NCBI GenBank assembly: GCA_016706425.1
Contig: JADJJR010000001.1
Coordinates: forward strand, 619,133 to 683,132
Source of the DNA: Elusimicrobiota bacterium
Lineage (GTDB): Bacteria > Elusimicrobiota > Elusimicrobia > FEN-1173
Length of the DNA stretch: 64,000 bases
Direction: 5' to 3'
The first letter of the stretch is position 1. Each line of letters opens with the position of its first letter. Of the stretch, positions 15,964 through 57,730 are shown piece by piece. The notes below the pieces were generated by a model that was not told where the DNA came from, searched no databases, and saw nothing but the letters and a program-made list of their open reading frames with translations. A program made the position numbers and the translations under genes.

Positions 15964-16021
15964 GAGTGGCGCCGAATCGATTCCACCGCCCGCGCACATC
16001 CCTGACCCCGAGGACGACACC

Positions 16022-18303: not shown

Positions 18304-18469
18304 AGGCCGAAAGGCCGGGGGGAGGACGGGAGGCCTCCCCCCACACCCCGCTCCCGCGGATGTCACCGCCGGGGCCGGGCCGCCGCGGCGGCCCAACGAC
18401 GAAGGCGTCTTGCGCGTGAAACCGCGCGGGACGCCTTTTTTGCTTTGTGGGGCAACAAAGGAGACGGAC

Positions 18470-31317: not shown

Positions 31318-31431
31318 GCCGGACCGGCCGCGAACCGCGCCGCGTCGAATCATTCCCACTCATTCCACCAAGAACTTTTGCGCCGCCCCGGTGTCCCACC
31401 GGTGCGGCTAATTTATTTTGAGAGGACCCCC

Positions 31432-34400
31432 ATGAAAAAAACCCTTTGGCTGTTCGTTCTGTTGGCGGTGACGCGGTCGGCCCACGCCGTTGCGGTCGAC
31501 CGCGCCGGGGCGGAGGCGGCGTTGGCCCGGGGGGACTACGCCCAAGCGCTCACGGACTTTTCCGCGCTTGTCCTGCGGCCGGCCGTGGATGAAAACGTGG
31601 GCCAGGATTTTAAAAATGTCCTGCAATGCCTGGAACGATTGAATCGGTCCGGGGACATCGATTCTTTCCGGGACAAGGCGATCGGGGCGCACCCCGGCAA
31701 CTGGCGGCTGGCGGTGGCGGCCGCCGACAGCCTGCGGGAGACCCCTTCTTTTGGACACATGATCGATGGCCAATTCCACCGGGGTTACCCCCGGGTGTGG
31801 AATGTCCGCCTGGTGGACGCGGGCGAGCGGGACCGGGCGCGGGCGCTGGCTTGGTTGGAGAAGGCCCTGGACGCCGCCGAAAAAGAAACCCGCCCGGTCG
31901 CGGGCGATTTTTACCGGGCCCTGGCCGACACGCTTTATTCGCGGCGGGAGGGGGCGGGGGCCTGGCGGTTGGGCGCCTTGACCTCGACCACGGAATGGCC
32001 TGACTATGATGATTACGGCGGCGGGACGAGCGCCGCGGGCGCCCCAGTGGACCGGGCGGGTCAACCGGTGTTTCATCGCGCGCCGAGCGGATGGGCGACG
32101 GCGCGCTCGGACGGGGAGCGCTGGCGCTGGGCGTTGGCGGCCTGGGCCCGCGCCGACGCCGCCCGCGCCCCCGAAAGCCGGCGGCGGTACGCCGATTTTC
32201 TCTCCCAACAGTTCGGGGTCGAGACCCTGCAATCTTTCGGCTGGTTTTGGGGACGTGTGACCGACGACGAATCGACGGCGGCGGCCCTGTGGTCGCTGGA
32301 CGGGTTGGGGGAAGACGAGACCCTGGCCCGGTTGGCCACGGGGGTCAAGCGATTTAAATTGCCGCCGGAACACAACTTCATCGCGATCTACAAGTCCCTG
32401 GAGGGTTTCCGGGAACTGGCCCAAATCTTCGAGAACCGCCGCCAATACGAACGCGCCGCCCATTATTGGCGGCTGTCGATGGGGGCCGCCGCCGAGGTCC
32501 CCGCCCCCGACGCCCCGCCCACCCACGACGAAGCCCGTGAACACCTCCGTCAGATCCTCGGCCGGTGGGGAACGTTCGCGGACGAGGAAGCGCCCGCCGG
32601 GCGTCCGACGTCGGTGGCCTTTCGGTTCCGCAACGCGACCTCCGTGCGTTTTGAGGCGCACGCCTTGAACGTGAACCGCCTGATCACCGACGTGAAGGCC
32701 TATTTGCGTTCGGATCCCGGCGACTGGGACTGGTCGAAGATGAGCCTGAACGACATCGGCCAGCGGATCGTCTGGGAGGGGCAAGAGAAATACCGGGGAC
32801 GGCGGGTGGCCTCTTGGACGGTGCCGCTCACGCCCCGCCCCGGGCATTTCGACCGGCGCGTCACGGTGCCCCTGCCGTTTAAGGACAACGGGGCATTCCT
32901 TATCACCGCGCGCGTGGAGGGCGGCAACACGAGCCACCTCGTGGTTTGGCGCGACGAACTCGCCCTGGTTCAAAAGCCCGTCGGGGACGGCGATTTTTAT
33001 TTTGTCGCGGACGCGGCGACCGGCCGGCCCGTTTCGGGGGCGGTCTTGGATTTCTTCGGCTTCCGCAACGAATACATCGATTCCCGCGTCGGTCGCCCGC
33101 GCATGAAAACCCACGCGCGGGGTTTTTCCCGGACGGTCGATCAAAACGGCGGCGCGACGGTGGGCGCGGCGGATCTGGGACGGGACCATCAATGGTTGGT
33201 GGAGGCCCGGGACGCCCGGGGGCGGCGCGCGTTTTTGGGGTTTCAACATTATTGGTTCCGGTCCCGGTGGGAAGGCGAACCCGCCCGGGCGGCGGCGTTC
33301 CTGATCTCCGACCGGCCGGTCTACCGCCCCGAGCAAGTCGTCCGTTTCCGCGCCTGGGCGGACCGCGCCGCCCACGACCGGACCGGCCCTTCGCCCTTCG
33401 CGGGGGCGGCTTTTTCCGTCACGATTTACGACCCCCAGGGTAAAAAAGTGTTTGAACGGTCCGTCGCCGCGGACGCGCGGGGCGGTTTTGACGGGGAATT
33501 TCCCTTGCCGGCGGACGCCGCCTTGGGAGCCTATTCGTTGCGGGCCCTGGGGCCCGCCCAGGGGTTTTTGTCTTTCCGCGTCGAGGAATACAAGAAGCCG
33601 GAATTTGAAGTGACGGTTTCGGCGCCGACGGAGCCGTTGCGCCTGGGCGACGCCGCCGTGGTCAAAATCGCCGCCCGGTATTACTTCGGCGCGCCGGTGA
33701 CCGAAGGGAAAGTGAAGTTCAAGGTCCTGCGCACGAGCGAGGACGGACGCTGGTACCCGTCGGGGCCCTGGGATTGGCTGTACGGGAACGGTTACGGTTG
33801 GTTGGGCACGGAGGCGACCTGGTGGCCCGGCTGGGCGCGCTGGGGATGTTGGCGCCCCCGCCCCCTGTGGTTTCCCGTCGACCGCACCCCGCCCGAGATC
33901 GTGGCCGAAGGCGAGGCGTTTTTGGAAAAAGACGGCACGCTGTCCGTGCCCATCGACACGGCCCTGGCAAAGGCCCTGCACCCCGACCGGGACCACCGCT
34001 ACGAAATCACCGCCGAAGTGACGGACAAGTCCCGGCGGACGATCGCGGGGCGGGGGGCGATGGTGGCCACGCGGCAACCGTTTCGCGCCACGGCCTGGAC
34101 GGACCGCGGGTTTTACCGCACGGGGGAACCGGCGCGGGTGTCCTTCGCGGCGGTGACCCCGGGCGGGGCGCCCCTGGTCGGGGCGTCCGTGCGGGCGGTG
34201 TTGCACCGGTTGGTCCCCCGGGGAGCGGCCGCGCCGACGGAAGAGCGGCTCGAGGCCTGGGCGCTTCGGACCAACGCCGAGGGGCGGGGGGCGGTCTCCC
34301 TCAAGGCCCTGCGCGCCGGGCAATACCGTTTGAGCGTGACGATCACGGACGGCCGGGACCGGGACGTGGAGACCGCGGCGCTGTTCACGGCCCGCGGCGA

Positions 34401-37400
34401 CGGCGATCCGGGGAATGATTTTCGGTTCAACGACTTGGAAATCCTGCTGGACCGGCGCACCCACGCGCCGGGGGAGACGGCCCGGCTCCTGATCAACACC
34501 GCCCAACCCGGGGGCGCTGTGCTGCTCTTCGTCCGTCCGGTCAACGGGGTCTACCAACGACCGGAGCTGGTCCGGTTGGACGGTCGAAGCGGGCTGCGTG
34601 AGGTGCCGCTGGCCGCGGCCGACAGCCCGAACATTTTCGTGGAAGCGGTGGCCGTGCGGGACGGGCGGGTGTTCTCAGAAATTCGGGAAATCCTTTTGCC
34701 GCCCGAAAGCCGCGCCTTGAACGTGGAGGTGAAGCCGGTCGCCTCGACGGTGAAACCCGGCGAGACGGCGAAAGCCCGGGTGCGGCTGACGGACGCCGCG
34801 GGCCGGCCCGTGCGCGGGTCGCTCACCCTGGCGGTCTACGACAAGAGCGTGGAATACATTTCCGGCGGCTCCAACGTGGCCGACATTCGGGAGTTCTTCT
34901 GGAAGTGGCGCCGGTCCCACACGCCGGGCGGGCGCTCGGCCTTCGACCGGTGGGACCGGTCGTTTCCTTTGAAGGACCGTCCCGGCATGGGGCCCCTGGG
35001 GGTGTTCGGCGCGGCGGCCCAGGACGAATTCCAGGGATTGGACAAGGATCGTTTGCGGGAGGGGGGGGTCGCGGGAGGGGCGGCTTTGCGCAAGGCCGCG
35101 GCCCCCGCGGCGACGCGGAGCGGTGTTTCCTCGGCCAACGCGGTGGCGGACGCCGCCGCGCCGGAGGAGGAATCGAGGGCCGTCTCTCCGGGCGTTGAAC
35201 CGACGGTGCGCAGTCGGTTCGCCGACACGGCCCTGTGGGTCGGCCGCGTCGACACGGACGCCCGGGGCGAATCCACGGTGTCTTTCAAAGCCCCCGACAA
35301 CCTGACGACGTGGAAGACCCGCGCCTGGGCGGTGAGCGACGGGGCGCGGGTGGGCGAGGGGACGGCGGAGATCGTCACCGCGAAAAAATTGTTGGTCCGC
35401 CTGCAGACCCCCCGCTTCTTGGTTCAAAAGGACGAGGCGGTTCTGAGCGCCAACGTGCACAATTATTTATCGTCTCGAAAAGACGTGCGGGTGTCGCTGG
35501 TTTTGGAGGGGGACACCCTCGCATTGTTGGACGGCGGCGACCGCACGGTGTCGATCCCGCCCCAGGGCGAAGCCCGGGTGGATTGGCGCGTGCGGGCCCT
35601 TCGCCCCGGGCCGACGACGGCGCGCGCGAAAGCCGTGACGGACGAGGAATCGGACGCGGTCGAAATCCGTTTCCCGGCGCGGGTCCACGGCATGACGAAA
35701 ATCGAATCCTTCGGCGGGTCCCAGCGGCCCGAGGCGACGGCGTCGTCCTGGACCTTTCGCGTGCCGGCGGAGCGCCGACCGGAAGCCTCTCGGTTGGAGA
35801 TCCGCGTTTCCCCGAGCCTGGCCCTCGCCATGGTGGACGCCCTGCCCTATTTGGCCGACTACCCCTACGGGTGCACGGAGCAGACGCTGAACCGGTTCCT
35901 GCCCACCGTCATCACCCAGGGGGCGTTGCGGCGGCTCGGGATTTCCCTCGCCGACGTGCGGGAAAAACGGACGAACCTGAACGCCCAGGAGGCCGGGGAC
36001 CCGGCCCGCCGGGCCCGCCGTTGGGGGGGCGAGGAAGAACCGTTCCGGAACCCGGTGTTCGACGAGAAAAAAGTCGCCGACATGGCGGCCACGGGTTTGA
36101 AGCGATTGACCGCCATGCAACTTTCCGACGGCGGGTGGGGGTGGTTCAGCGGTTCGCGCGAGGAATCCTCGCCCCACACCACGGCGGTCGTGGTGGACGG
36201 CTTGTTGACCGCCCGGGGGGCGGGACTGAAGGTGCCCGCCGATGTCCTGGGCCGGGGCGTGGCCTGGTTGGCGCGTTACCAAGAGGGCGAGGGGGAGCGC
36301 CTGCGTCGCGGGGACGCGAAAAAAAGCGACGGCAAGGAGGCGGCCGACGAATTGGACGCCTTGGTATACCGGATTCTCGTGGACGCCGGGCGCGAAAGCG
36401 CCGTCTTGCGCGGGTATCTGTGGCGGGACCGTTTAAAAATCAGCCTCTACGCCCAGGGGCTACTGGGCCAGGCGCTTCACCGGGCGGGGCGAGCGGAGGA
36501 GAGCGCCCAGCTGCGTCGCCATCTGGCCCAGTACGTGGTCCGGGACGACGAGAACGAGACCGCCCATCTGCGCATGGACAACGCCCATTATTGGTGGCGT
36601 TGGTACGGCAGTGAAACCGAGGCCCACGCCGCGGTGTTGCGGTTTTTCCTGGCCGAGAACCCCCGGGACCCGGTGATCCCCCGCTTGGTGAAATACCTGC
36701 TCAACAACCGTCGGCACGGGACCTACTGGAACTCCACCCGCGACACGGCGCTGATTGTGGAGGCCTTCGCGGAGGTGTTGGCGGCCACCGGCGAGGACCG
36801 GCCGGATTACACCCTGACCGTGGCCGTGGACGGCCGGACCGTGAAAACCGTGGTCATCAGCCCGGCCAATCTCTTCACCTTTGAGAACCGGGTGGTCCTG
36901 GCGGGGGAGGACCTGTCCACCGGGACGCACACGGTGAGTCTCGTCAAAGCGGGTCGGGGCGCCCTTTATTGGAACGCCACCCTGGAAAACTTCACGATGG
37001 AGGATCCCCTGACCCGCGCGGGTTTGGAGATCAAGGTCGACCGGGCCTATTACAAACTTCGCGACGCCGGCGCGAGCGTCGCCGCCGTCGACGCGCGCGG
37101 CGGGCCCGTGGACCAACGGGTGGAGAAGAAGTCCCGCGTTCCATTGACGGACGGCGAGGAAATCAAGACCGGCGACGTGGTCCTGGTGGAATTGTCCGTG
37201 GAGTCCAAAAACGACTACGAATACATTCTGGTCGAGGACCGGAAACCGGCGGGGTTCGAACCCGTGGCCCTGCGCAGCGGGGAAAGCGGCGGACCGTACA
37301 TGGAGTTGCGCGATGAGCGGGTCGGGTTTTTCTTCCGGGCCCTGGGACGCGGACGGGTGAGCGTTTCCTACGAACTGCGGGCGGAGACCCCGGGCCGCTT

Positions 37401-37488
37401 CAGCGCGTTGCCCGCCCGGGCCCTGGGCATGTACGCCCCCGAATTGGCCGCCAACAGCGACGAGTTCAAGACGCGGGTGGCGGACTGA
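31432..37488 (+). CDS. Alpha-2-macroglobulin family protein (bacterial A2M, thioester-containing)
   Basis: Signal peptide MKKTLWLFVLLAVTRSAHA. MG-domain repeats. Thioester-like YPYGCTEQTLNRF (CxEQ). About 2,018 aa. Confidence 0.8.
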   Translation: MKKTLWLFVLLAVTRSAHAVAVDRAGAEAALARGDYAQALTDFSALVLRPAVDENVGQDFKNVLQCLERLNRSGDIDSFRDKAIGAHPGNWRLAVAAADSLRETPSFGHMIDGQFHRGYPRVWNVRLVDAGERDRARALAWLEKALDAAEKETRPVAGDFYRALADTLYSRREGAGAWRLGALTSTTEWPDYDDYGGGTSAAGAPVDRAGQPVFHRAPSGWATARSDGERWRWALAAWARADAARAPESRRRYADFLSQQFGVETLQSFGWFWGRVTDDESTAAALWSLDGLGEDETLARLATGVKRFKLPPEHNFIAIYKSLEGFRELAQIFENRRQYERAAHYWRLSMGAAAEVPAPDAPPTHDEAREHLRQILGRWGTFADEEAPAGRPTSVAFRFRNATSVRFEAHALNVNRLITDVKAYLRSDPGDWDWSKMSLNDIGQRIVWEGQEKYRGRRVASWTVPLTPRPGHFDRRVTVPLPFKDNGAFLITARVEGGNTSHLVVWRDELALVQKPVGDGDFYFVADAATGRPVSGAVLDFFGFRNEYIDSRVGRPRMKTHARGFSRTVDQNGGATVGAADLGRDHQWLVEARDARGRRAFLGFQHYWFRSRWEGEPARAAAFLISDRPVYRPEQVVRFRAWADRAAHDRTGPSPFAGAAFSVTIYDPQGKKVFERSVAADARGGFDGEFPLPADAALGAYSLRALGPAQGFLSFRVEEYKKPEFEVTVSAPTEPLRLGDAAVVKIAARYYFGAPVTEGKVKFKVLRTSEDGRWYPSGPWDWLYGNGYGWLGTEATWWPGWARWGCWRPRPLWFPVDRTPPEIVAEGEAFLEKDGTLSVPIDTALAKALHPDRDHRYEITAEVTDKSRRTIAGRGAMVATRQPFRATAWTDRGFYRTGEPARVSFAAVTPGGAPLVGASVRAVLHRLVPRGAAAPTEERLEAWALRTNAEGRGAVSLKALRAGQYRLSVTITDGRDRDVETAALFTARGDGDPGNDFRFNDLEILLDRRTHAPGETARLLINTAQPGGAVLLFVRPVNGVYQRPELVRLDGRSGLREVPLAAADSPNIFVEAVAVRDGRVFSEIREILLPPESRALNVEVKPVASTVKPGETAKARVRLTDAAGRPVRGSLTLAVYDKSVEYISGGSNVADIREFFWKWRRSHTPGGRSAFDRWDRSFPLKDRPGMGPLGVFGAAAQDEFQGLDKDRLREGGVAGGAALRKAAAPAATRSGVSSANAVADAAAPEEESRAVSPGVEPTVRSRFADTALWVGRVDTDARGESTVSFKAPDNLTTWKTRAWAVSDGARVGEGTAEIVTAKKLLVRLQTPRFLVQKDEAVLSANVHNYLSSRKDVRVSLVLEGDTLALLDGGDRTVSIPPQGEARVDWRVRALRPGPTTARAKAVTDEESDAVEIRFPARVHGMTKIESFGGSQRPEATASSWTFRVPAERRPEASRLEIRVSPSLALAMVDALPYLADYPYGCTEQTLNRFLPTVITQGALRRLGISLADVREKRTNLNAQEAGDPARRARRWGGEEEPFRNPVFDEKKVADMAATGLKRLTAMQLSDGGWGWFSGSREESSPHTTAVVVDGLLTARGAGLKVPADVLGRGVAWLARYQEGEGERLRRGDAKKSDGKEAADELDALVYRILVDAGRESAVLRGYLWRDRLKISLYAQGLLGQALHRAGRAEESAQLRRHLAQYVVRDDENETAHLRMDNAHYWWRWYGSETEAHAAVLRFFLAENPRDPVIPRLVKYLLNNRRHGTYWNSTRDTALIVEAFAEVLAATGEDRPDYTLTVAVDGRTVKTVVISPANLFTFENRVVLAGEDLSTGTHTVSLVKAGRGALYWNATLENFTMEDPLTRAGLEIKVDRAYYKLRDAGASVAAVDARGGPVDQRVEKKSRVPLTDGEEIKTGDVVLVELSVESKNDYEYILVEDRKPAGFEPVALRSGESGGPYMELRDERVGFFFRALGRGRVSVSYELRAETPGRFSALPARALGMYAPELAANSDEFKTRVAD

Positions 37489-43159: not shown

Positions 43160-44204
43160 GCACTATTCCAACCTCGTTTTTTTCATCGTGGGTTTCCTGT
43201 TCGACGCGGTCACCTTGGTCCGCATCGATTCCCTGTTGGACCTTTCCCTCCACGCCGTTTATCTGGCCCTCATCACCGGGCTCATTTTGGAAAACGAGCG
43301 GCGGGGGTCCCGGCCCGTCACGTCGACCGGTTGGATCGCGCGGCTTTGGCGCTACGAATCCGAACTGTTGCACTTTTGTTACGGGGGCCTCCTCAGCGCC
43401 TTCGTGGTGCTCTATTTTAAAAGCACCTCCGTTTCACGGTCCTTGTTCTTCTTCGTCCCCACGGTGCTCCTCATGGTCGCCAACGAGATGCCCCAGGTCC
43501 GCCGGGTCGGGCACCGCCTGCGGCTGGGCCTTTACGCGTTTTGTCAATTGTCGTTCATGAACTACCTGGTGCCCATCGCCCTGGGCGTCATGGGCGGGGC
43601 CGTCTTCCTGTTATCGGTTTTGTTGGCGGGGGTGTTGACGGGAGGACTGGTGTGGGCCGTGCACCGCCTCCACCCGTCCCGTACCCGGGTGTCCCTGGCG
43701 GCGGCGCCGACGTTGGTGTTCGCCGTGGTGATCGGAAGTTATTTTTTAAAGTGGATCCCGCCCGTGCCCCTGTCGCTGCAATTCGCGGGCATCTTCCACG
43801 GGGTCGAACGCGTCGGAAAGAATTACCAACTCGCCTATTGGCGGCGCATCCCCGGCAATTGGTTCCATCGGGAGGACCGGCGGTTCCTTTACCGCGAAGG
43901 GGACCGCGTCCATTTTTTCGTGCGGGTGTTCGGCCCCCGCCGCTTCCGCCACGCCCTGGGGTTGGTTTGGGAACATCGCGATCCCGCGTCGGGACGATGG
44001 AACAAAACCGACCGCGTCCCGTTGGAAGTCCGCGGCGGCCGGGCCGCGGGGTACCGGGGGTGGGCCGCCAAGGCGAATTACGCCCCGGGCCGCTGGCGGG
44101 TGAGCGTGGTGACGGAGGACGACCGCTCCTTGGGCGGCGTCAACTTCACGGTCGCGCCCGACCCGAGCGCCGAACCCCGGGTCGTAAAAATCCGGCGGAT
44201 GTGA
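43125..44204 (+). CDS. Integral membrane protein with C-terminal soluble domain (DUF2914-like)
   Basis: Several TM helices, then a beta-rich C-terminal domain (GRWRVSVVTEDDRSLGGVNFTV). Overlaps the dinB 3' end by 35 nt. Confidence 0.45.
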   Translation: MNRLKTLFGVLKHYSNLVFFIVGFLFDAVTLVRIDSLLDLSLHAVYLALITGLILENERRGSRPVTSTGWIARLWRYESELLHFCYGGLLSAFVVLYFKSTSVSRSLFFFVPTVLLMVANEMPQVRRVGHRLRLGLYAFCQLSFMNYLVPIALGVMGGAVFLLSVLLAGVLTGGLVWAVHRLHPSRTRVSLAAAPTLVFAVVIGSYFLKWIPPVPLSLQFAGIFHGVERVGKNYQLAYWRRIPGNWFHREDRRFLYREGDRVHFFVRVFGPRRFRHALGLVWEHRDPASGRWNKTDRVPLEVRGGRAAGYRGWAAKANYAPGRWRVSVVTEDDRSLGGVNFTVAPDPSAEPRVVKIRRM

Positions 44205-45307
44205 TGCGCGTCTGGACCGGTTTTGAGGGACGGTGGCGGTTCTACGAGGGCGCCGAGGCGGTGATCGAGGCGGCGTCTCCCACGCACGTGGCCCGCGCCT
44301 TTGAGCGGATGGAAGAGGCCCTGGCCCGGGGCCGCCACCTGGCGGGGTTCTTCTCTTTCGAGGCGGGGTACGCCCTCGACCCCGCCCTGTCGCTTAACCG
44401 CCCGGTGGATTTTCCCTTGCTGCGCGTGGGCGTGTTCGGCCCGCCGCGGCCGGAGCGGCCCGTCGGCGCCGGCCCCGCGCCCCGGTTGGGGGATTTTCGA
44501 TTGAACATCGAACGCCCCGATTACGACCGCCGCATCGCCGCCATCCGGGACCTCATCGCGCGCGGGGACGTCTACCAAATCACCTATTGCATTAAAAACA
44601 CATTCACCGCGACGGGCGACTCCCGCGTCCTCTTCGCCACCCTCCTGGACGAACAGCCCGTGCCTTACCCGGCCTTGATCGAGTGCGACGACGCCCACAT
44701 CCTTTCGCTGTCGCCGGAGCTGTTTTTAAAGAAAACAAAAGACCGGCTCCTTTCCAAACCCATGAAAGGCACCTGGGTCCGGGGCCGAACACCCTGGGCC
44801 GACCTGCTCGCGCGGTTCCGGCTCAAATTCGATTCCAAAAACCGCGCCGAGAACGTGATGATCGCCGATCTTCTGCGCAACGACCTGGGCCGCGTGGGCG
44901 ACCGGGTGCGGGCGCCCAGGCTGTTCGAGGTCACGGGCTACCGCACGCTCTATCAAATGACGTCGACGGTGACGGCCCGGGTGCCCCCGGCGTTGGATTT
45001 GCGGTCGTTCTTCGCGGCCATCTTCCCCTCGGGGTCCGTGACGGGCGCGCCCAAGATCCGCGCCATGCAAATCCTGCGAAACCTGGAGCCCGAGGACCGC
45101 CGCGTCTACACCGGCGCCATCGGTTACGTCACGCCGGAGCGGGATTTCTTTTTCAACATTCCCATCCGCACCCTCCTGTTGCGCGGGGGGCGCGGCGAAA
45201 TGGGCATCGGCGGCGGCATCGTGTGGGACTCCACCCCCGACGGGGAGTGGGCCGAAGGGTTGCTGAAGTCGCGCTTTTTAAGGGACTCCCGCTGCGCGGG
45301 GGCTTGA
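44204..45307 (+). CDS. pabB: Chorismate-binding enzyme, short PabB/TrpE-type (aminodeoxychorismate/anthranilate synthase component I-like)
   Basis: Motifs GDVYQITY, SLSPELFL, FPSGSVTGAPKIRAMQI, YTGAIGY, GGGIVWDS. No pabA/trpG or pabC adjacent. Confidence 0.7.
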   Translation: MRVWTGFEGRWRFYEGAEAVIEAASPTHVARAFERMEEALARGRHLAGFFSFEAGYALDPALSLNRPVDFPLLRVGVFGPPRPERPVGAGPAPRLGDFRLNIERPDYDRRIAAIRDLIARGDVYQITYCIKNTFTATGDSRVLFATLLDEQPVPYPALIECDDAHILSLSPELFLKKTKDRLLSKPMKGTWVRGRTPWADLLARFRLKFDSKNRAENVMIADLLRNDLGRVGDRVRAPRLFEVTGYRTLYQMTSTVTARVPPALDLRSFFAAIFPSGSVTGAPKIRAMQILRNLEPEDRRVYTGAIGYVTPERDFFFNIPIRTLLLRGGRGEMGIGGGIVWDSTPDGEWAEGLLKSRFLRDSRCAGA

Positions 45308-45318
45308 CGCGCCGCCCC

Positions 45319-45358
45319 GGGCCCGCCCTCCCCAAGGGGAGGGCGGGCCCTTTTTTTT
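45319..45358 (+). terminator. Rho-independent terminator (GGGCCCGCCCTCCCC-AA-GGGGAGGGCGGGCCC + T8)
   Basis: Perfect 15-bp GC stem with a 2-nt loop and a TTTTTTTT run, directly after the pabB stop. Confidence 0.7.
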
Positions 45359-46244
45359 ATTGGGCGCCGTAAACCGCCGCGAAGGATTTCGCGAACTCCT
45401 CGATGGAGGTCGGCGTGGTCGTCTCCACCGAGCGGGGCTGTGTGGGCTTGAGGGCTCCCTCGTTGAAGGCTTTGTACATCTCGTTGAAGAGCGCGGCCAC
45501 GTCGGGGGAGAGGCCCATGTTCACCATGGCGTTGAAGGCGTCCGGGTAGGGAAATTGCACGTAGGGCAGGTCGGGCTTGCCGATGGCGGCGCCAAGCGCG
45601 CGGGTGACCTCGGCCAGGGAGAGGTCCCGGGGACCGTGCAGTTCCAGCACCTCCCGCTCGCGGAAATCCCCCGCGGCCAAGGCCCGGGCGGCCCTTTGGG
45701 CGATGTCCCGGGTGGCGATCATGGGGATCTTGATGTTCGGGGCGATGGGGCTGCCGTTGATCCCCTGGGCCTTGATGAGCCCCAGGCCGAAGAAGGCGTT
45801 TTCCATGAAGTAGCCGGGGCGGAGGTGCAGGCGATCGACGCTTTCCAGGGCGTCCAATCGTTTTTCGTGGTCGTAAAGGCCCTTGATGGGTCCGGTGCCG
45901 TCGGGCAGGTGGGCGCCCAGGCTCGAGAGGTTGACCACTTTTTTGACCCCGGCGGCGCGCACGCCGTCGACATAGGCGCGGCTGACTTGGTTGTAATAGG
46001 CGCGAAAGTCCGGCGCGTTGTAGCGCGGGGGGATCAACAAAAAGACCGCGGACGCGCCCCGAAAGGCCTCCGCGATCGCCGCCCCGTCCGTGAGGTCCAC
46101 GACGCGGGTTTCCGCGCCTTTTTGCGCCAGGGGCGCAAGCTTTTTGGCATCGCGGGCGAGCGCCCGCACTTTCTGACCTTGCTTTAAAAGTTCCTCCACC
46201 AACGCGTGCCCGATTTGGCCTGTGGCCGCTGTGACGACGATCAT
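45357..46244 (-). CDS. NmrA-like NAD(P)H-binding protein (SDR superfamily)
   Basis: Rossmann motif MIVVTAATGQIGHALVEEL. NmrA-like C-terminal region. GGAGG SD. Confidence 0.7.
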   Translation of the reverse strand: MIVVTAATGQIGHALVEELLKQGQKVRALARDAKKLAPLAQKGAETRVVDLTDGAAIAEAFRGASAVFLLIPPRYNAPDFRAYYNQVSRAYVDGVRAAGVKKVVNLSSLGAHLPDGTGPIKGLYDHEKRLDALESVDRLHLRPGYFMENAFFGLGLIKAQGINGSPIAPNIKIPMIATRDIAQRAARALAAGDFREREVLELHGPRDLSLAEVTRALGAAIGKPDLPYVQFPYPDAFNAMVNMGLSPDVAALFNEMYKAFNEGALKPTQPRSVETTTPTSIEEFAKSFAAVYGAQ

Positions 46245-46382
46245 GGGAAACCTCCGAGACATTGGGAATCCGGCGGGGAGGGCCGGTGGCGCGTCCCCGC
46301 GCGTACTTTCGCCCAAAAGCGAAAGGACCCCAAACCGCGCGGAGGCTTATTATATGGAACGTCGGTGAGTTGGAAAAGTTCC

Positions 46383-46885
46383 CTAAACGGAGGCGTGCAC
46401 TTCGACGCGGTTGCGGCCGAGGTCCTTGGCGCGGTAGAGGGCGCGGTCGGCGAAGGTCAACAGGTGCTCCAGATTTTCTCCCGCCACCGATCGGCTCGCG
46501 ATGCCGAAGCTGGCGGTGACGGTCAGGGAGCGGCCCTCGGCCTCGATGGGGGTCGCGGCCACGGCGTGGCGCAGGCGCTCGACCACCTCGCGGGCCGCTT
46601 CGGGGAGGTGTCGGGCAGAAGAACGGCGAATTCCTCGCCGCCGTAGCGACCCACCACGTCGGTCAAACGCAGGCCGTTTTTGAGACGTCGGGCGACCTCT
46701 TTCAACACGATGTCCCCGACCCCGTGGCCGTGGGTGTCGTTCACTTTCTTGAAATGGTCGATGTCGGCCATGACCACGGCCACGCCCCCGGGGCCGGGCC
46801 CGCGGCGGCGGGCGTTTTCCCGTTCCGCCAGAAAGAAGAACTGCCGCCGGTTGAAAAGGCCCGTCAATTCGTCCGTGATGGCCAA
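46383..46885. repeat. ~500-bp near-identical 3' segment shared by the three tandem GGDEF paralogs (copy 1)
   Basis: Nucleotide-identical to 47926..48424 and 49446..49937 apart from homopolymer lengths and a few substitutions near the stop codons. The N-terminal parts diverge. Confidence 0.7.
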
Positions 46886-47930
46886 AGCCTGGACTTCTTC
46901 CAAGAGTCCCACCGATTCAAGGGCCGCTCGCGCTTGTGAAGCACAGGTTGCCGCCAAGTCCCGTTGGGCGACGCTGAAACGGCGCAACCCCCGCTTGGCC
47001 AACCACAAAACGCCCTGCACCCCTTTTTTTGACATCAGCGGCACAGCCAATACGGCGTGGGACCGCAGGCTCTCGGGGTCGGCGGGTTTCCTTCGCGAGG
47101 GATCCCAGGCGAAGGGCCGCCCCACGGCCAGGGCGGCCGCGACCGAAGACAGACCCACCGCCTCGTGGATGCCGTTTCTTCGGGACAGGGCGCCTTGCCC
47201 GTCCACCCACATCCCGCCGGTGGTCGGCCCCATCCACTGGATGGACCATTGGGCGCTTTCTGTCATGAGCGCCGTGAAACGGCCGAAGGTCATCCCAACG
47301 CCCTGGGGGGTCCTTTGTCCAAACATGGCGGCGCTGTACACGCGCATGTGCTGCAAGCGGGTGAATGATCGGATCCGGTTGGCTAGGAGGAGGAGCGCGA
47401 CCGTGGCGGTGGCGATGAGGATGAAGATGTCGTCCACCAACAACTCGAAAGGCGTCTTTTGTCCGATCACCAGCCACCACGCGAGAATCAAGGCCGCGCC
47501 GGTCCCCGCGAACCAACGAAAGGACAACATCACCGTGGCGGTGCCGATGATCGTCAATCCGAGCCAAATCGTGAACAGCTGCGCGCTGGCCAATTCCGTT
47601 TCAGTGCCCAAGAGGAAGGCGGAGACAAGGATGTCCGTTCCCGTCAATAAGGCGAGTGTGGCACTGAGCGATTCGGGTGGGAGTCGCCCGAGTCGTTCGG
47701 GGCGGGCGAAAAATCCAAATAAGGCGAAAAAAACAATCAGCGCGGGGTCAATAAAGAGCATTTCCCGAAGCAAGGGACCTAAGTAATAAGGGATGTTTAA
47801 AATAAATTGGACCGTGAACAAAGCCGACAAACACAGTGCTCCGCGACGGGCGTCCGCCACCACCGTGGCCCGGCGGGACTTCCGGTAAATCGACAATCGG
47901 TCAATGGGGGCGTCACCGCGGGGGATCATG
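46383..47930 (-). pseudogene. Tandem GGDEF paralog copy 1 (multi-TM sensor + GGDEF), frameshifted in a G4 homopolymer
   Basis: N-terminus MIPRGDAPIDRL... Multi-pass membrane domain. GGDEF domain in the 843-aa ORF up to GGEEFAVLLPDTSP; the remaining C-terminus is in a different frame (ORF 46383..46586). G-run 46602-46605 is 4 nt, versus 5 nt in copy 2. Confidence 0.6.
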
Positions 47931-49449
47931 GGGCATGAACTTCGACGCGGTTGCGGCCGAGGTCTTTGGCGCGGTAGAGGGCGCGGTCGGCGAAGGTCAA
48001 CAGGTGCTCCAGATTTTCTCCCGCCACCGATCGGCTCGCGATGCCGAAGCTGGCGGTGACGGTCAGGGAGCGGCCCTCGGCCTCGATGGGGGTCGCGGCC
48101 ACGGCGTGGCGCAGGCGCTCGACCACCTCGCGGGCCGCTTCGGGGGAGGTGTCGGGCAGAAGAACGGCGAATTCCTCGCCGCCGTAGCGACCCACCACGT
48201 CGGTCAAACGCAGGCCGTTTTTGAGACGTCGGGCGACCTCTTTCAACACGATGTCCCCGACCCCGTGGCCGTGGGTGTCGTTCACTTTCTTGAAATGGTC
48301 GATGTCGGCCATGACCACGGCCACGCCCCCGGGGCCGGGCCCGCGGCGGCGGGCGTTTTCCCGTTCCGCCAGAAAGAAGAACTGCCGCCGGTTGAAAAGG
48401 CCCGTCAATTCGTCCGTGATGGCCAGGGACTTGACCTCGTCCAGCAGGGCCACGGCGTTCAACGCCGCCCGGGCCTGGGTGGCGCAAATTTCCGCCAAAT
48501 CCCATTGCGCCACCGTGTGTTGCCGAAATCCGTGCCGCGCCAGCCAAAGGACGGCCCGCGCGCCTTGGGCGCCCATCAACGGGACGCCCAGCACCCCGCG
48601 GGCTTGACGGGGGCCCGTGTCGAACAAACGTCGGTGAACGGGGTCCCAAACAAAAGGCCTCGCCGTTTCGGTCGCGCCGGGGGGGAGGGCGCGCGCGGCG
48701 CCGTCCAGGCCGGGGAGCGCCGCCAGACCGCCGGGCCCTTCCGTCCAACATTTTCCCTCCAAGGGGGGAAACCACTCCACCGCCCATCGGGGACTGTCGG
48801 TCAACAAGGCGGTGAATCGGCCGAAAGCCATCGCCACGCCCAGCGGGGTCCGCTGCCCAAGCAAGGCGGCGCTGTAGGCGCGCATGCGTTGCAGGCGGGC
48901 AAACCCCCGCGCCCGGTTGGCGAGCAAGACCAGGGCGACGGCCCCGGCGGCGATGAGGATAAAAGCTTCGTCCGGAATGTTTTCGAGGGGGGCCCGGCGG
49001 CCGACCAACACCCCCCAAACGGCCCCCAACGCGAGGACCGTCCCCGCGAACCACCGCAGGGACAACATCACCGTGGCGGTGCCGATGATGGTCAGGCCCA
49101 GGTACGCCGTGTACAGGACATCCGCTCCGACGAAAAAAGCCGCCGTGAGAATGTTGGCGCCGGTCAATAAACCCAAGGCGGCGCCCAGCGCGTCCCCGGG
49201 GATCCGACCCAAACGACCCGGTTGCGCGAAAGCCCCCACGGCCGCGAAGAAAACGATCAAGGCGGCGTCAAAAATCAACATCGGGGTTCGCGCGGGCGGT
49301 TGAAAATCAAACGCGTTGAAAACGAAAAAACCGCCAAAAAGGAAGGTCAGACACCAAGCCATCCGCCGGCCGTCTTCGATCACCGCGGCGTGGCGGGATT
49401 TCTCATAGACGGCGAAGGCGTCGGGCAGGGGGTCAATCCGGGGATTCAT
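47926..49449 (-). CDS. Tandem GGDEF paralog copy 2, intact (multi-TM sensor + GGDEF diguanylate cyclase)
   Basis: 507 aa. 7-8 TM N-terminal domain. ITDELTGLFNRRQFF...RYGGEEFAVLL GGDEF. Stop overlaps the copy-1 start (ATGA). Confidence 0.75.
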   Translation of the reverse strand: MNPRIDPLPDAFAVYEKSRHAAVIEDGRRMAWCLTFLFGGFFVFNAFDFQPPARTPMLIFDAALIVFFAAVGAFAQPGRLGRIPGDALGAALGLLTGANILTAAFFVGADVLYTAYLGLTIIGTATVMLSLRWFAGTVLALGAVWGVLVGRRAPLENIPDEAFILIAAGAVALVLLANRARGFARLQRMRAYSAALLGQRTPLGVAMAFGRFTALLTDSPRWAVEWFPPLEGKCWTEGPGGLAALPGLDGAARALPPGATETARPFVWDPVHRRLFDTGPRQARGVLGVPLMGAQGARAVLWLARHGFRQHTVAQWDLAEICATQARAALNAVALLDEVKSLAITDELTGLFNRRQFFFLAERENARRRGPGPGGVAVVMADIDHFKKVNDTHGHGVGDIVLKEVARRLKNGLRLTDVVGRYGGEEFAVLLPDTSPEAAREVVERLRHAVAATPIEAEGRSLTVTASFGIASRSVAGENLEHLLTFADRALYRAKDLGRNRVEVHAP

Positions 49450-50992
49450 GGGCGTGCACTTCGACGCGGTTGCGGCCGAGGTCCTTGGCGCGGTAGAGGG
49501 CGCGGTCGGCGAAGGTCAACAGGTGCTCCAGATTTTCTCCCGCCACCGATCGGCTCGCGATGCCGAAGCTGGCGGTGACGGTCAGGAGCGGCCCTCGGCC
49601 TCGATGGGGGTCGCGGCCACGGCGTGGCGCAGGCGCTCGACCACCTCGCGGGCCGCTTCGGGGGGAGGTGTCGGGCAGAAGAACGGCGAATTCCTCGCCG
49701 CCGTAGCGACCCACCACGTCGGTCAAACGCAGGCCGTTTTTGAGACGTCGGGCGACCTCTTTCAACACGATGTCCCCGACCCCGTGGCCGTGGGTGTCGT
49801 TCACTTTCTTGAAATGGTCGATGTCGGCCATGACCACGGCCACGCCCCCGGGGCCGGGCCCGCGGCGGCGGGCGTTTTCCCGTTCCGCCAGAAAGAAGAA
49901 CTGCCGCCGGTTGAAAAGGCCCGTCAATTCGTCCGTGGTCGCCATTTGTTGGACTTCCCCCAGCAGGGCGACCGCTTCAAAGGCCGCGCGCGCCTGGGCG
50001 ACGCAGGTTTCCGCCATGTCGCGTTCCGTCACGCCGAAACCGCGGTGGCCCCTTTTGGCGAGCCACAAGACCCCCAACACCGACCCCTTGGACAGGAGGG
50101 GAAGGGCCAGCGCGCCCGGCGCCCCCGCCGTAAAGCGTCGCCAACCTCCGTCAGGAATTTCCGCGGGGGGGAAACCCCAAAAAAAGGGTCGTCCCGCGGC
50201 GAGCGCGGCGTCAAAGCCGGGCGCGCGTTCCGTGTGGGCCCGCCGCAGGGCGTCGTTGCGGGACAGCGCGCCTTTTCCGTCGACCCAGGCGAGCGGGGCC
50301 CCCTCCGCCACCCATTGAACGGACCACGCCGCCGCCCCGGTGAGCGGGCCGGCCGTGCGCCCGAGGGCGAGGGCGACATCGTTCGCCGATCGTTGGCGCA
50401 ACAGCAACGCCGCGAAGGAGCGGATGCGCTGCAAACGGGTGAAAGATAGGATGCGGTTGAACAGCAAAACATAGGCGATGCCGATCACGGTGGCGAACAC
50501 GAAGGCGTCATCGAGCCAGCCGTCCCCCGAAGGAAACCAAAGGACAACCCCCAGCCAGGCGCCCCCGAGGACCAGCGTGGCGATCGTCATCCAGAAGGCG
50601 GAGAGGAGAACGGCGGCGATGCCGATCAACGTCAGGCCCAAGTAGGCCGTGAACAGCAGATCGGACTTTAAGAGCGTCGCGGCCGTGAGGATGTTGAGCC
50701 CGGCCAGCGTCCCGAGCAGGGCGCCCCAGGCGTTGGCGCGCGAGCGGATGATGCGTCCCGCCCCGGCGGCCGCCCCCACAAAACCGTAAAAAACGATCAG
50801 CGCTCCGTCGAAGGCGAGCATCCCCCCCCGGTGCGCGGGCGGAAAGGTCAGCGCGTCGAAGGTGAAAAGTCCGACGTAAAGCGCCGCCAGGCAAAAAGCC
50901 ATCTTGCGCACGTCTTCCAGCACCGCCCCCTGGAGGGACCGGTGGTAGGCCACGGCGTGGTCGTCCCACGACAGCAAGGATCGTTTCTTCAT
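49433..50992 (-). CDS. Tandem GGDEF paralog copy 3 (intact ORF but with +1/-1 compensating indels giving a 24-aa out-of-frame patch)
   Basis: 519 aa. G-run 49660-49665 is 6 nt, and G-run 49585-49586 is 2 nt (versus 5 and 3 in copy 2). The patch RSGPRGGRAPAPRRGRDPHRGRGP replaces EAAREVVERLRHAVAATPIEAEGRS. Confidence 0.65.
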   Translation of the reverse strand: MKKRSLLSWDDHAVAYHRSLQGAVLEDVRKMAFCLAALYVGLFTFDALTFPPAHRGGMLAFDGALIVFYGFVGAAAGAGRIIRSRANAWGALLGTLAGLNILTAATLLKSDLLFTAYLGLTLIGIAAVLLSAFWMTIATLVLGGAWLGVVLWFPSGDGWLDDAFVFATVIGIAYVLLFNRILSFTRLQRIRSFAALLLRQRSANDVALALGRTAGPLTGAAAWSVQWVAEGAPLAWVDGKGALSRNDALRRAHTERAPGFDAALAAGRPFFWGFPPAEIPDGGWRRFTAGAPGALALPLLSKGSVLGVLWLAKRGHRGFGVTERDMAETCVAQARAAFEAVALLGEVQQMATTDELTGLFNRRQFFFLAERENARRRGPGPGGVAVVMADIDHFKKVNDTHGHGVGDIVLKEVARRLKNGLRLTDVVGRYGGEEFAVLLPDTSPRSGPRGGRAPAPRRGRDPHRGRGPLLTVTASFGIASRSVAGENLEHLLTFADRALYRAKDLGRNRVEVHAHESPD

Positions 50993-51056
50993 CGGTGGGG
51001 CGCGCGCGGCGCCCCTTTAAGAATGGGCCGGAAAAGAGCCGAACTCAATGGTTTTC

Positions 51057-51443
51057 TTAGAGGTAAAAATCCGCGGGGGCGAAGGCGTTGGGGATGTGTT
51101 CGCAGGCGCCGTTTCGCACCGCGACGACGTCGAAACGGAGCGGCCGTCCGATCCGGTTGTTGTCCTTGAGGTACGCCAAGGCGGCCTGGGCGACGCGGCG
51201 CTGTTTGGCGGGGGTGACGGTTGCGGCGGCCGCGCCGAAACGGTCCGACGATCGTTCGCGCACTTCCACGAAGACCAACGTGCCGCGGTCCTCCATCACC
51301 AAATCCACCTCGCCGGCGCGGGTGGCGGCGTTGGCCGCGCGAAAAACGAAACCGCGGGATTCGAGGAAGGAGCGGGCGAGCGTTTCGGCCCGTCGGCCCT
51401 GGGCCTGCCGGGGGGAGAGGAGACCTTTAAACGGGTTCAGCAA
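51057..51443 (-). CDS. yraN: YraN family (UPF0102) endonuclease
   Basis: Conserved EVDLVMEDRGTLVFVEVRER core. Confidence 0.75.
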   Translation of the reverse strand: MLNPFKGLLSPRQAQGRRAETLARSFLESRGFVFRAANAATRAGEVDLVMEDRGTLVFVEVRERSSDRFGAAAATVTPAKQRRVAQAALAYLKDNNRIGRPLRFDVVAVRNGACEHIPNAFAPADFYL

Positions 51444-52076
51444 TCCGGTCGAACAGCCCGGGGGACAGGCACTCCCGCACGGGCGCGTAGCTTTTGCGAT
51501 GGATGGGCGAGGGTCCGAACCGACGAAGGGCTTCGGCGTGTTCCGCCGTGCCGTAGCCTTTGTTGGCGGCGAAATCGTAATGGGGGTATTCCCGGTGGGC
51601 GCGGGCCATCCAGCGGTCGCGCGTGACCTTGGCGAGCACGCTCGCGGCGGCCACGCTGGCGCTTTTCCCGTCGCCGCCGATCACGGCCTCCTGGAGCCGC
51701 GCCGGCAGCTGAGGCACTTTTTTGTTGCCGTCGATTAAAATCAGGGAGGGCTCCACGCCGAGCGCGCGCACCGCCTGCGCCATGGCCAGAAACGTGGCCT
51801 GGAGGATGTTCCGTTCATCGATGATCTCGGGGGGACCAACTGCACCGCGTGGAACAAGGCGTCGCCGCGGATGCGGTCGAAGAGGGACTCGCGGGTTTTT
51901 TCGGAAAGTTTCTTGCTGTCGTTCAATTCCGGCCAACGGGTTTCGGGCCGCAAAATGACCGCCGCGGCCGCCACGGGTCCGGCCCAGGGGCCGCGGCCCG
52001 CCTCGTCGACGCCCGCCAAAACAAAAAAGCCTTTTTCGCGCCAGGCGTGATCGAAGGCGTAGAGGGCTTCCCGCAT
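51427..52076 (-). pseudogene. rnhB: Ribonuclease HII, interrupted by a frameshift in a G6/C6 homopolymer (51829-51834)
   Basis: N-terminal half (ORF 51741..52076: [16 protein letters not shown]). C-terminal half (ORF 51427..51936: [19 protein letters not shown]...DFAANKGYGT). The two are joined only by a frameshift at ctcggggggacc. Confidence 0.7.
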
Positions 52077-52157
52077 GGCAAAAGCCTATGAATTATCCCC
52101 CGGGAAAGCAAACGCCCGACGCCGGTTTTCGGCGTCGGGCGTCGGTTCGGGAAACGG

Positions 52158-52553
52158 TTATTTCGCGGCGACGGCTTCGGGCGCGGGGGCGGCCTTGGCG
52201 GTCGGCGTGTTGAGGCTTTCGTCTTCGATGCGGGCGGCCTTGCCGGAGAGGTCGCGCAGGTAATACAACCGCGCGCGCCGCACCTTGCCGGAGCGCAACA
52301 CCTTGATGCTCGATAGGCGCGGGGTGTGGAGGGGGAACGTCCTCTCGATGCCGATGCCGAAGGAGATTTTGCGCACCGTGAAGGTGGCGCCGATGCCGTG
52401 CCCGCGTTTGCGGATCACGACGCCTTCGAAGGCCTGCACGCGCTTCGATTCGCCCTCGATGATTTCCACGTCGAGGCGCACCACATCGCCCACGCGGAAG
52501 TCGGTGACTTTTTTCAGGAAAGACGATTCAACTTTTTCGAGAATGGAGTTCAT
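52158..52553 (-). CDS. rplS: 50S ribosomal protein L19
   Basis: [31 protein letters not shown]...; conserved L19. The 241-aa ORF in the track is an upstream extension. Confidence 0.9.
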
Positions 52554-56849: not shown

Positions 56850-57224
56850 ATGAATACACTTTTGGCCGGGGATCGCGTGCCGGCGGCGGAAGCCCGCCGG
56901 CGGATCAACATGATCGTTCTTGAAATCGACGCCAAAGGGACGGATCTGGCCCGGGGCCTCAATATCAACGACGCCCAACTCAACCGCATGCGCCACAAAA
57001 AGACGGGATTTTACCGACAGGAAACCCTTCGCCCCATCAACCGGCTTCAGGAAATCTTGGACCTGGCCGAAAAGATTTTGACCCGCCCGGGGCTCCGCAA
57101 ATGGTTCATGACCCCGACCCCGAAACTGAACGATTTGCCGCCTTTGATGTGCCTTCGGACCGACAAGGAGGCGGAGAAAGTGAAATCCCTCCTGATGGCC
57201 CTGGGGCACGGTTTTCCTGCGTGA
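56850..57224 (+). CDS. Xre-family/DUF2384-type antitoxin (ParS/MbcA-like)
   Basis: C-terminal W...P...L..LPP...L.T....E.V..LL.AL..G pattern (RKWFMTPTPKLNDLPPLMCLRTDKEAEKVKSLLMALGHG) typical of RES-partner antitoxins. Stop overlaps the toxin start. Confidence 0.55.
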   Translation: MNTLLAGDRVPAAEARRRINMIVLEIDAKGTDLARGLNINDAQLNRMRHKKTGFYRQETLRPINRLQEILDLAEKILTRPGLRKWFMTPTPKLNDLPPLMCLRTDKEAEKVKSLLMALGHGFPA

Positions 57225-57730
57225 ATCTGGCCGCCGTCCAAACCCTTCTTCCCGGTGTCGCGTGCCCCCACAAAGCCTACTATCGCGTGGTGAGCAAGGG
57301 GTTCGCCTCCGGCATTGACGACATCGGGCCTTCGTTCCTCGTTGGTTGGCGGTACAATCCGAAGCACGAGTTCGGTGTCCTGTATCTGTCGGTCAGCCCG
57401 GAGTGTTGCGCCCTGGAGCGGGGGCGGCAGTTCGGCGGGGGGGCCGAAGTGTTTCGACCCTTCGTGACGGGGCGGTTCAAGGTCGACGTTCGACGCTGTT
57501 TGGACGTGACCCACAAGGACGTCCTGCGGGCGCTCGAAATCAATCGGGAGGACCTGCTGGCGGGCGACGATTACTCTTTGCCCCAATCCATCGCCCGGGA
57601 AGCCCGCCGGGTGGGGTTTGAGGCCGTTATTGCCCCTTCCGCCGCCAGCGACCGCTGCCAAAATTTGGTTGTTTTCAAGGACAAATTGACCCCGCCTTCT
57701 TATTGCCTTCTTGACACGCTGGTTGATTGA
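57221..57730 (+). CDS. RES-domain toxin (ParT/MbcT-like NAD+-targeting toxin)
   Basis: GTG overlaps the antitoxin stop (GTGA). Conserved R (VGWRYNP), E (...SPECCALE), S (IAPSAASD) spacing characteristic of the RES domain. Confidence 0.65.
   Translation: MNLAAVQTLLPGVACPHKAYYRVVSKGFASGIDDIGPSFLVGWRYNPKHEFGVLYLSVSPECCALERGRQFGGGAEVFRPFVTGRFKVDVRRCLDVTHKDVLRALEINREDLLAGDDYSLPQSIAREARRVGFEAVIAPSAASDRCQNLVVFKDKLTPPSYCLLDTLVD

Follow-up and report, generated by a model that had tools for sequence, protein, structure and literature searches.

Do three neighboring diguanylate cyclase genes in an uncultured bacterium switch on and off through changes in the length of short G tracts, or did these differences in length arise during sequencing? 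The genes lie in a 64,000-nucleotide (nt) stretch, hereafter the window, that spans positions 619,133 to 683,132 of contig JADJJR010000001.1 (assembly GCA_016706425.1). The organism is classified in Elusimicrobiota; Elusimicrobia; o__F11; f__FEN-1173 (MiDAS midas_s_595, activated sludge). A first-pass annotation, made from the letters alone, had noticed that the genes share identical 3΄ ends in which two G tracts differ in length among the copies. We consider it highly probable that two layers must be separated at this locus, namely a real gene conversion that spread one catalytic domain over three genes and artefactual differences in tract length superimposed on it. Judged from comparisons among assemblies, the tract differences are almost certainly residual nanopore homopolymer errors, rather than switching.

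The three genes are arranged head to tail on the minus strand, as seen in the list of open reading frames (ORFs), with a repeat finder and in a three-way DNA alignment:

49433..50992, minus strand: copy 3 (g1-type), 519 amino acids (aa) as assembled; Pfam GGDEF domain (E = 2e-38) and a weak GAF_2 match
47926..49449, minus strand: copy 2, intact, 507 aa; Pfam GGDEF domain (E = 1e-44)
46383..47929, minus strand: copy 1, in two pieces, a 468-aa product at 46523-47929 and the remaining C-terminal part at 46383-46586

The stop codon of copy 2 overlaps the start codon of copy 1 as ATGA, and the start of copy 2 overlaps the 3΄ end of copy 3 by 17 nt; these overlaps between consecutive genes suggest that the array is a single, translationally coupled operon. 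It is flanked by yraN (UPF0102) and an NmrA-like gene. A hydropathy scan found four to six transmembrane (TM)-like segments in the protein of each copy. Copies 2 and 3 contain a full Pfam GGDEF domain with weak GAF matches upstream of it, whereas in copy 1 the profile positions 1-93 and 95-161 fall on its two separate pieces. The PF00990 match with E = 1e-44 covers profile positions 1-161 and is accompanied by the GG[DE]EF motif of GGDEF diguanylate cyclases. Furthermore, RLTDVVGRYGGEEF, which joins RLTD (the RxxD I-site) to the GGEEF active site, was found in all three proteins after repair of their reading frames. Each copy is therefore predicted to encode a membrane-bound sensor diguanylate cyclase, and the ORFs, alignment, Pfam matches and hydropathy agree with the initial description of three tandem multi-TM GGDEF genes. 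In their full GGDEF domain, GGEEF and RxxD motifs, TM helices and GAF-like region, the copies resemble the known membrane-bound GGDEF diguanylate cyclases with N-terminal sensors; unlike these, they have an N-terminal TM module that falls in no Pfam family. In a homology search, full-length relatives, down to approximately 36% identity, came mainly from metagenome contigs, and the named ones were exclusively Elusimicrobia metagenome-assembled genomes (MAGs). When genome contigs were scanned with the copy 2 protein, the matches listed comprised only generic GGDEF proteins from unrelated phyla. A fourth GGDEF gene in the window (4410-5756, plus strand, 448 aa) is without the block shared by the other three.

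This shared block occupies the following positions:

46399..46877, minus strand: identical block of copy 1, 479 nt owing to the deletion at site A (see below); encodes the whole GGDEF domain
47939..48418, minus strand: identical block of copy 2, 480 nt; three substitutions near the 3΄ end form the edge of the conversion tract
49458..49937, minus strand: identical block of copy 3, 480 nt including one +1 and one -1 change; presumed donor type

The core of the block contains no substitution among the copies, and the only three found overall are all in copy 2, within the final ~35 nt. Upstream of the block, the copies are 52-60% identical to each other, and at its edge the identity jumps from 67-69% to 99-100% between adjacent 90-nt sliding windows. 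Diverged N-terminal parts are thus joined to identical 3΄ ends, as had been noticed at first sight. The block had, however, been assigned to the C-terminal half of the GGDEF domain; since it begins at approximately residue 345 of copy 2, in which the Pfam GGDEF domain comprises residues 343-501, it covers the entire domain.

Perfect identity within the block, observed in assemblies that all come from one pipeline, might indicate that the three copies, or their identical ends, result from an assembly duplication or from a long-read consensus that smeared one domain over three. We regard this as almost certainly not the case. The parts upstream of the block are far from identical (52-60%, as given above) and have separate orthologues in sister species, and 11 independent nanopore assemblies concur on the structure. 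Moreover, contigs produced by other means (SPAdes- and MEGAHIT-style, Logan and JGI) either end inside the block or cross it as collapsed paths, which is how a true exact repeat that exceeds k in length should behave. Contigs from other projects (L029, L032 and L045) stop 39-125 nt inside a block. The collapsed paths join the N-terminal part of copy 2 through the block to the tail of copy 1 (JGI L044, P0123 and P0129), the N-terminal part of copy 3 to the tail of copy 1 (Logan P0144), or the N-terminal part of copy 3 to the tail of copy 2 (ENA P0145), and in Logan P0137, copy 1 is complete and undisrupted from its own N-terminal part to its own tail. Its effect on the de Bruijn graphs of other assemblies, which are interrupted or collapsed by it, shows that the repeat is real. 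Just upstream of the block, contig L044 (JGI 3300056831, Ga0558120_01525, positions 1-1072) is a mosaic of copies 2 and 1, which hints at a longer conversion tract. The joins of N-terminal parts to foreign tails and this mosaic could be due to repeat collapse by the assembler, to real deletion variants generated by unequal crossover, or to longer conversion tracts in different strains.

The origin of the repeat was examined in three sister species, here called B, C and D, which share with the window the gene order rpsP, KH, trmD, rplS, rnhB, yraN, GGDEF genes, NmrA-like and pabB. Species B, C and D carry two, two and three GGDEF genes, respectively, all of them intact. In a codon-based comparison, the GGDEF domains of paralogs within each of these species were 66-80% identical; in other words, they are not homogenised. 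The housekeeping flanks of the species studied here and of species D show 89.5-96.5% identity. The N-terminal part of copy 1 is 89.6% identical to that of the second gene of species D (D_g2), a value that matches the divergence of the flanks, but the blocks of the two genes are only 77% identical. By this measure, copy 1 and D_g2 are orthologues. For copy 2 and the second gene of species B (B_g2), the corresponding values are 77% and 72%. All three blocks are nearest to the g1-type domain (D_g1, 86-87%; B_g1, 84%), that is, to the lineage of copy 3. Because all blocks are nearest to the g1 type while the N-terminal parts keep other orthologues, GGDEF sequence of the copy-3 type has overwritten the domains that copies 2 and 1 originally carried. 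This conversion post-dates the split from species D and is recent enough that the core of the block holds no substitution.

We propose that recent non-reciprocal recombination copied a 480-nt stretch encoding the GGDEF domain from the copy-3 lineage into copies 2 and 1, and as a result three different sensor modules would now drive one identical catalytic domain. Concerted evolution of bacterial paralogs is known for tufA/tufB and for rRNA operons. The present locus resembles these cases in that a sharp-edged tract of 100% identity is embedded in diverged paralogs (52-60% in the flanks), the phylogenies of tract and flanks are discordant, and the sister species are not homogenised. It differs from them in that the tract is one complete domain of multidomain sensors and in that the direction of transfer can be deduced. 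The gene conversion or recent homogenisation initially suspected is thereby supported and gains a direction. It is an ordinary, modest case of concerted evolution, in which a catalytic module is homogenised under diverging sensors; at the same time, the conversion among the tandem sensor cyclases of this uncultured lineage of Elusimicrobiota is clean, directional and domain-precise, and it is absent from the three sister species. In the same comparison, gene order was not conserved among the species: copy 1, the third gene of the array, was the orthologue of the second gene of species D (L131), and in species B and C it was the last gene that matched copy 2, the second gene. The four species carry two, two, three and three copies, and the array is being rearranged or is gaining and losing members.

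Within this block, the G tracts at two sites differ among the copies of the window, with site A being 4, 5 and 6 nt and site B being 3, 3 and 2 nt long in copies 1, 2 and 3, exactly as reported in the first-pass annotation:

46602..46605, plus-strand G4: site A of copy 1; seven of 11 nanopore assemblies have C5 here on the coding strand, and the Logan, ENA and JGI assemblies are in frame
48142..48146, plus-strand G5: site A of copy 2; 4 nt or shorter in four other nanopore MAGs (L037-L040)
49660..49665, plus-strand G6: site A of copy 3; most assemblies have 5 nt, JADJQJ likewise has 6 and JADKJA has 4
46526-46528, plus-strand G3: site B of copy 1
48066-48068, plus-strand G3: site B of copy 2
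49585..49586, plus-strand G2: site B of copy 3; also 2 in JADKJA and 3 in the other scorable assemblies

ORFs and alignment likewise confirmed that copy 2 is intact, that copy 1 is frameshifted and that copy 3 carries a +1 and a -1 change. Copy 1 is split because its site-A run is 1 nt shorter; the intact form of 515 aa (P0132) is present on five NCBI contigs and one Logan contig. In copy 3, the two changes enclose an out-of-frame patch between 49586 and 49665, PRSGPRGGRAPAPRRGRDPHRGRGPL, of approximately 25 residues (initially counted as 24). In a coding-potential scan of all genes called in the 64-kb window, no second strong out-of-frame patch was found inside a gene. The patched protein is identical to P0142 (GenBank MBK7544663.1), and the intact version of 519 aa (P0138), which is most likely the true product of copy 3, occurs on nine contigs. 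The exact product of copy 2 was found on five contigs, and copy 2 is itself frameshifted in other nanopore MAGs.

Phase-variable poly-G and poly-C tracts are known from Neisseria, Haemophilus and Campylobacter, and contingency tracts of this kind usually measure 7-8 nt or more. As in those loci, a change in the length of the G/C runs inside the cyclase genes shifts the reading frame. It could accordingly be proposed that the tracts change in vivo by strand slippage, so that populations express different subsets of the c-di-GMP synthases. The tract lengths do vary from copy to copy and among the MAGs of different treatment plants, the C4 run of copy 1 recurs in 4 of 11 MAGs, and the +1 change of copy 3 is paired with a nearby -1 change that restores the frame. 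However, the runs concerned are well under the length of known contingency tracts (4-6 nt at site A and 2-3 nt at site B). In addition, the patch in copy 3 places approximately 25 residues rich in Pro, Arg and Gly in the catalytic domain and would not rescue function; the pair of changes is therefore not a selected compensation.

We compared the window with GCA_016702405.1 (JADJDY). Over 13.5 kb of aligned sequence, the two displayed no substitution and four single-base homopolymer indels, located in rnhB (6 in the window versus 7), at site A (6 versus 5) and site B (2 versus 3) of copy 3, and at site A of copy 1 (4 versus 5). When the comparison was extended to window positions 4845-64000 (59.2 kb), one substitution was found, and the homopolymer indels still totaled four. 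The window and JADJDY are two assemblies of one strain, with an indel-to-substitution ratio of 4:1, a pattern that speaks against switching. All four indels frameshift the window, and three of them fall within the 1.44 kb of repeated block. In JADJDY, by contrast, rnhB and the three cyclase genes are intact (216, 519, 507 and 515 aa), with tract lengths of 5/5/5 at site A and 3/3/3 at site B. Uniform G5 and G3 tracts had been named beforehand as the observation that would point to pure sequencing error; at the level of assemblies, they were found in JADJDY and in every Logan, ENA and JGI assembly.

The fourth of these indels lies outside the repeat and can serve as a control:

51829..51834, G6 run frameshifting the RNase HII gene rnhB (minus strand, 51427-52085): specific to the window

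The gene is located 850 bp upstream of the triplet. It is broken at a run that reads C6 on the coding strand, and in the window the RNase_HII Pfam profile positions 1-54 and 75-198 lie in two frames. In every other assembly covering the site, including the SPAdes-style ERZ22157947 NODE_895 and JAHZTR, the run is 7 nt long and the gene is intact (216 aa). The frameshift in rnhB, a housekeeping gene, is an assembly error confined to the window, and the occurrence of the same type of indel there argues against genuine switching of the cyclases. Other abutting segments in the window (VanZ/UPF0047, a 239-aa protein/RmuC, Xre-like antitoxin/RES, purA/carA and def/fmt) were considered as possible frameshifts and proved to be separate genes.

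We then aligned the 11 nanopore assemblies that span the triplet over window positions 45300-52200 (6.9 kb); the partial JGI contig L044 was kept out of this multiple alignment and compared pairwise. Inside the three blocks 27 indel events were counted, compared with 2 outside (1.66 versus 0.034 per kb), which corresponds to an approximately 49-fold enrichment (binomial test, P = 1e-16; Fisher test, P = 2e-18). The events strike at least eight homopolymer sites, including site A, a second C5 run (GACCCCCAT), site B (C3), an A5 and a G4 run, and affect all three copies, copy 2 included. The blocks contain no run longer than 5 nt. In the 5.46 kb of unique sequence, on the other hand, there are 57 runs of at least 5 nt (13 of 6 nt and 8 of 7 nt) and only the two events in 11 assemblies; thus, the 21 runs of 6-7 nt next to the repeat are nearly invariant, while short runs vary within it. 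Because the variation tracks repeat status and is neither specific to a tract nor scaled with run length, biological slippage is not supported. Deletions outnumber insertions by 23 to 4, as predicted from the undercalling of R9.4.1 reads. The gene calls for copies 3/2/1 differ by MAG (519/506/468+82; 519/461+58/468+82; 519/506/408+108; 518/414+66/515; 490+37/290+129+93/515), and the genes flanking the triplet are intact nearly everywhere in these assemblies.

Site A is altered in 4 of the 11 assemblies in copy 1, in 4-5 in copy 2 and in 3 in copy 3. Because all three copies are altered there at similar rates, a systematic, context-specific miscall at site A fits the data and with them the recurrence of C4 in copy 1 across plants. 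No frameshifted version was seen in the Logan, ENA or JGI assemblies examined; their products (P0137, P0144, P0145, P0123, P0129 and L044) are all in frame through LLPDTSPEAAREVVERLRHAVAATPIEAEGRSLTVTASFG / PEAAREVVERLRHAVAATPIEAEGRSLTVTASFG, and the tracts of L044 are 5/5/3 at three sites. When metagenome contigs were scanned for patterns spanning site A and the GGEEF region, no match was obtained in a collection that evidently does not hold these samples, since the sequence is present in JGI L044. In summary, the cyclase genes are unlike the phase-variable loci of Neisseria, Haemophilus and Campylobacter in that their runs are short and bound to a repeat, vary at many sites and only in nanopore assemblies, and undergo indels of a kind that also affects the unrelated housekeeping gene rnhB. 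On these grounds, the ON/OFF variation suggested in the first-pass annotation is exceedingly unlikely.

The recurrence of C4 in copy 1 in several MAGs could also be taken to mean that copy 1, copy 3 or both are fixed pseudogenes in the Ejby strain, from which the window derives, and that the intact sister assemblies were over-corrected by reads from an intact copy. Polishing with multi-mapping reads could average tracts of 6/5/4 to 5/5/5, and the tract sum is 15 in both states. However, the disruptions of copy 1 fall at five different positions in MAGs whose strains are almost the same, and three MAGs have copy 1 intact, so that many independent events without accompanying substitutions would be needed. 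The intact, full-length copy 1 of Logan P0137 is likewise difficult to reconcile with a fixed pseudogene, and the lack of any substitution between copies in the core of the blocks is unlike relaxed selection; ongoing conversion would, moreover, also repair frameshifts. We consider such pseudogenes very unlikely.

Residual homopolymer error, by comparison, accords with the way in which the window was assembled. In Singleton et al. 2021 (PMC8012365), the MAG Ejby_18-Q3-R6-50_MAXAC.192 (JADJJR) serves as species representative for dRep cluster 221_1, with a coverage of 66.8x in nanopore and 24.7x in Illumina reads (supplementary MAG table of PMC8012365). In the published pipeline, Nanopore reads were assembled with CANU and polished with Racon and two rounds of Medaka (r941_flip213), followed by one Racon round with Illumina reads mapped by minimap2 (PMC8012365). 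That is, error-prone R9.4.1 long reads were combined with alignment-based short-read polishing. The consensus errors of R9.4.1 data are homopolymer indels, which cause frameshifts unless polished (PMC9262707). As described for Polypolish, polishers that use one alignment per read leave errors in erroneous repeat instances uncovered (Wick & Holt 2022, PMC8812927). Racon is counted there among the alignment-dependent polishers, and it put errors into all 100 error-free test genomes (PMC8812927).

At the present locus, short reads with one alignment each would favor whichever copy of the block is already correct. Errors in the other copies would thus stay unpolished, and Racon could add new ones; errors introduced by Racon can account for the insertions. 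The locus resembles the repeat errors described for Polypolish in its combination of R9.4.1 reads with Racon, in the single-base homopolymer indels by which same-strain assemblies mainly differ, in their ~49-fold enrichment in an exact repeat, and in their being specific to individual assemblies and absent from those of other assemblers. It differs in that the genome is metagenome-assembled, rather than that of an isolate, and in that the errors are known from assemblies, rather than from read coverage. The first-pass annotation had alternatively attributed the tract differences to errors amplified by repeat collapse; the sister assemblies support the error, and the collapse does not stand because long reads resolve all three copies. 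As judged from the sister assemblies, which provide the tract lengths for the Ejby sample, the true state is most likely 5/5/5 at site A and 3/3/3 at site B, with three intact genes (519, 507 and 515 aa).

Several observations weigh against sequencing error as the source of the tract differences. The lengths in the Ejby sample come from sister assemblies, not from reads. Of the 11 nanopore MAGs, four have C4 at site A of copy 1 and two (the window and JADJQJ) show the 6/5/4 pattern, which is more than purely random error would produce. In most short-read versions, the block is a collapsed path and gives the consensus of all three copies instead of a length for each copy, and the sequencing platform of the Logan and JGI contigs is unconfirmed. 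Furthermore, the +1 and -1 changes of copy 3, 78 nt apart, are somewhat unlikely as two independent random errors. We considered C4 in copy 1 as a real allele and rejected it as the principal explanation; copies 2 and 3 are altered at this site at similar rates, and the position at which copy 1 is disrupted varies among MAGs, with five in total. In a more elaborate form of this idea, selection or ongoing conversion would keep one GGDEF domain on three sensors, possibly for mixed dimers or signal integration, and some tract variants, such as C4 of copy 1 in four plants, would be real alleles made and erased by conversion, giving an ON/OFF variation coupled to conversion. We find this most improbable, and homopolymer error in a genuine repeat remains the preferred explanation of the tract differences.

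If so, the MAG that represents this species carries false frameshifts in two of its three cyclase genes and in rnhB, which could mislead both annotators and those who mine genomes for phase variation. Even after polishing with Racon or Pilon, exact repeats in MAGs built from R9.4.1 reads are best regarded as unpolished.

Further indels were observed elsewhere. In JADJZV (L002/L004), a 1-nt homopolymer insertion at approximately window positions 44041-44044 fuses DUF2914 and pabB into a 727-aa ORF and is another assembly-specific indel in this set of MAGs. In the window, a FAD_binding_4 oxidase gene (16004-17604, plus strand) is split into 213 and 342 aa by a 1-nt deletion at approximately 16585-16591, where TTGGAACCTG has become TTGGACCTG. 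There is no long homopolymer at this position. JADJDY, JADKBI and the Logan contig ERR14653854 have the same split as the window, and more distantly related strains have an uninterrupted gene of 536-552 aa. The split thus resembles a true frameshift or pseudogene of particular strains more than an error of sequencing.

Two giant genes are also present on the plus strand. The first (18356-26032) encodes a protein of 2,521 aa for which no Pfam family is listed, and the second (31426-37485) a 2,018-aa bacterial alpha-2-macroglobulin (MG2/A2M/bMG10). Both are split or fused with their neighbors in some sister MAGs (for example, 3,169 aa in JADJHG), probably owing to further assembly indels or to strain differences in the 17.6-18.3 kb region. 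Finally, a pair consisting of an Xre/MbcA/ParS-like antitoxin and a RES-domain toxin is encoded at 56862-57691 (plus strand), between ppc and thyX.

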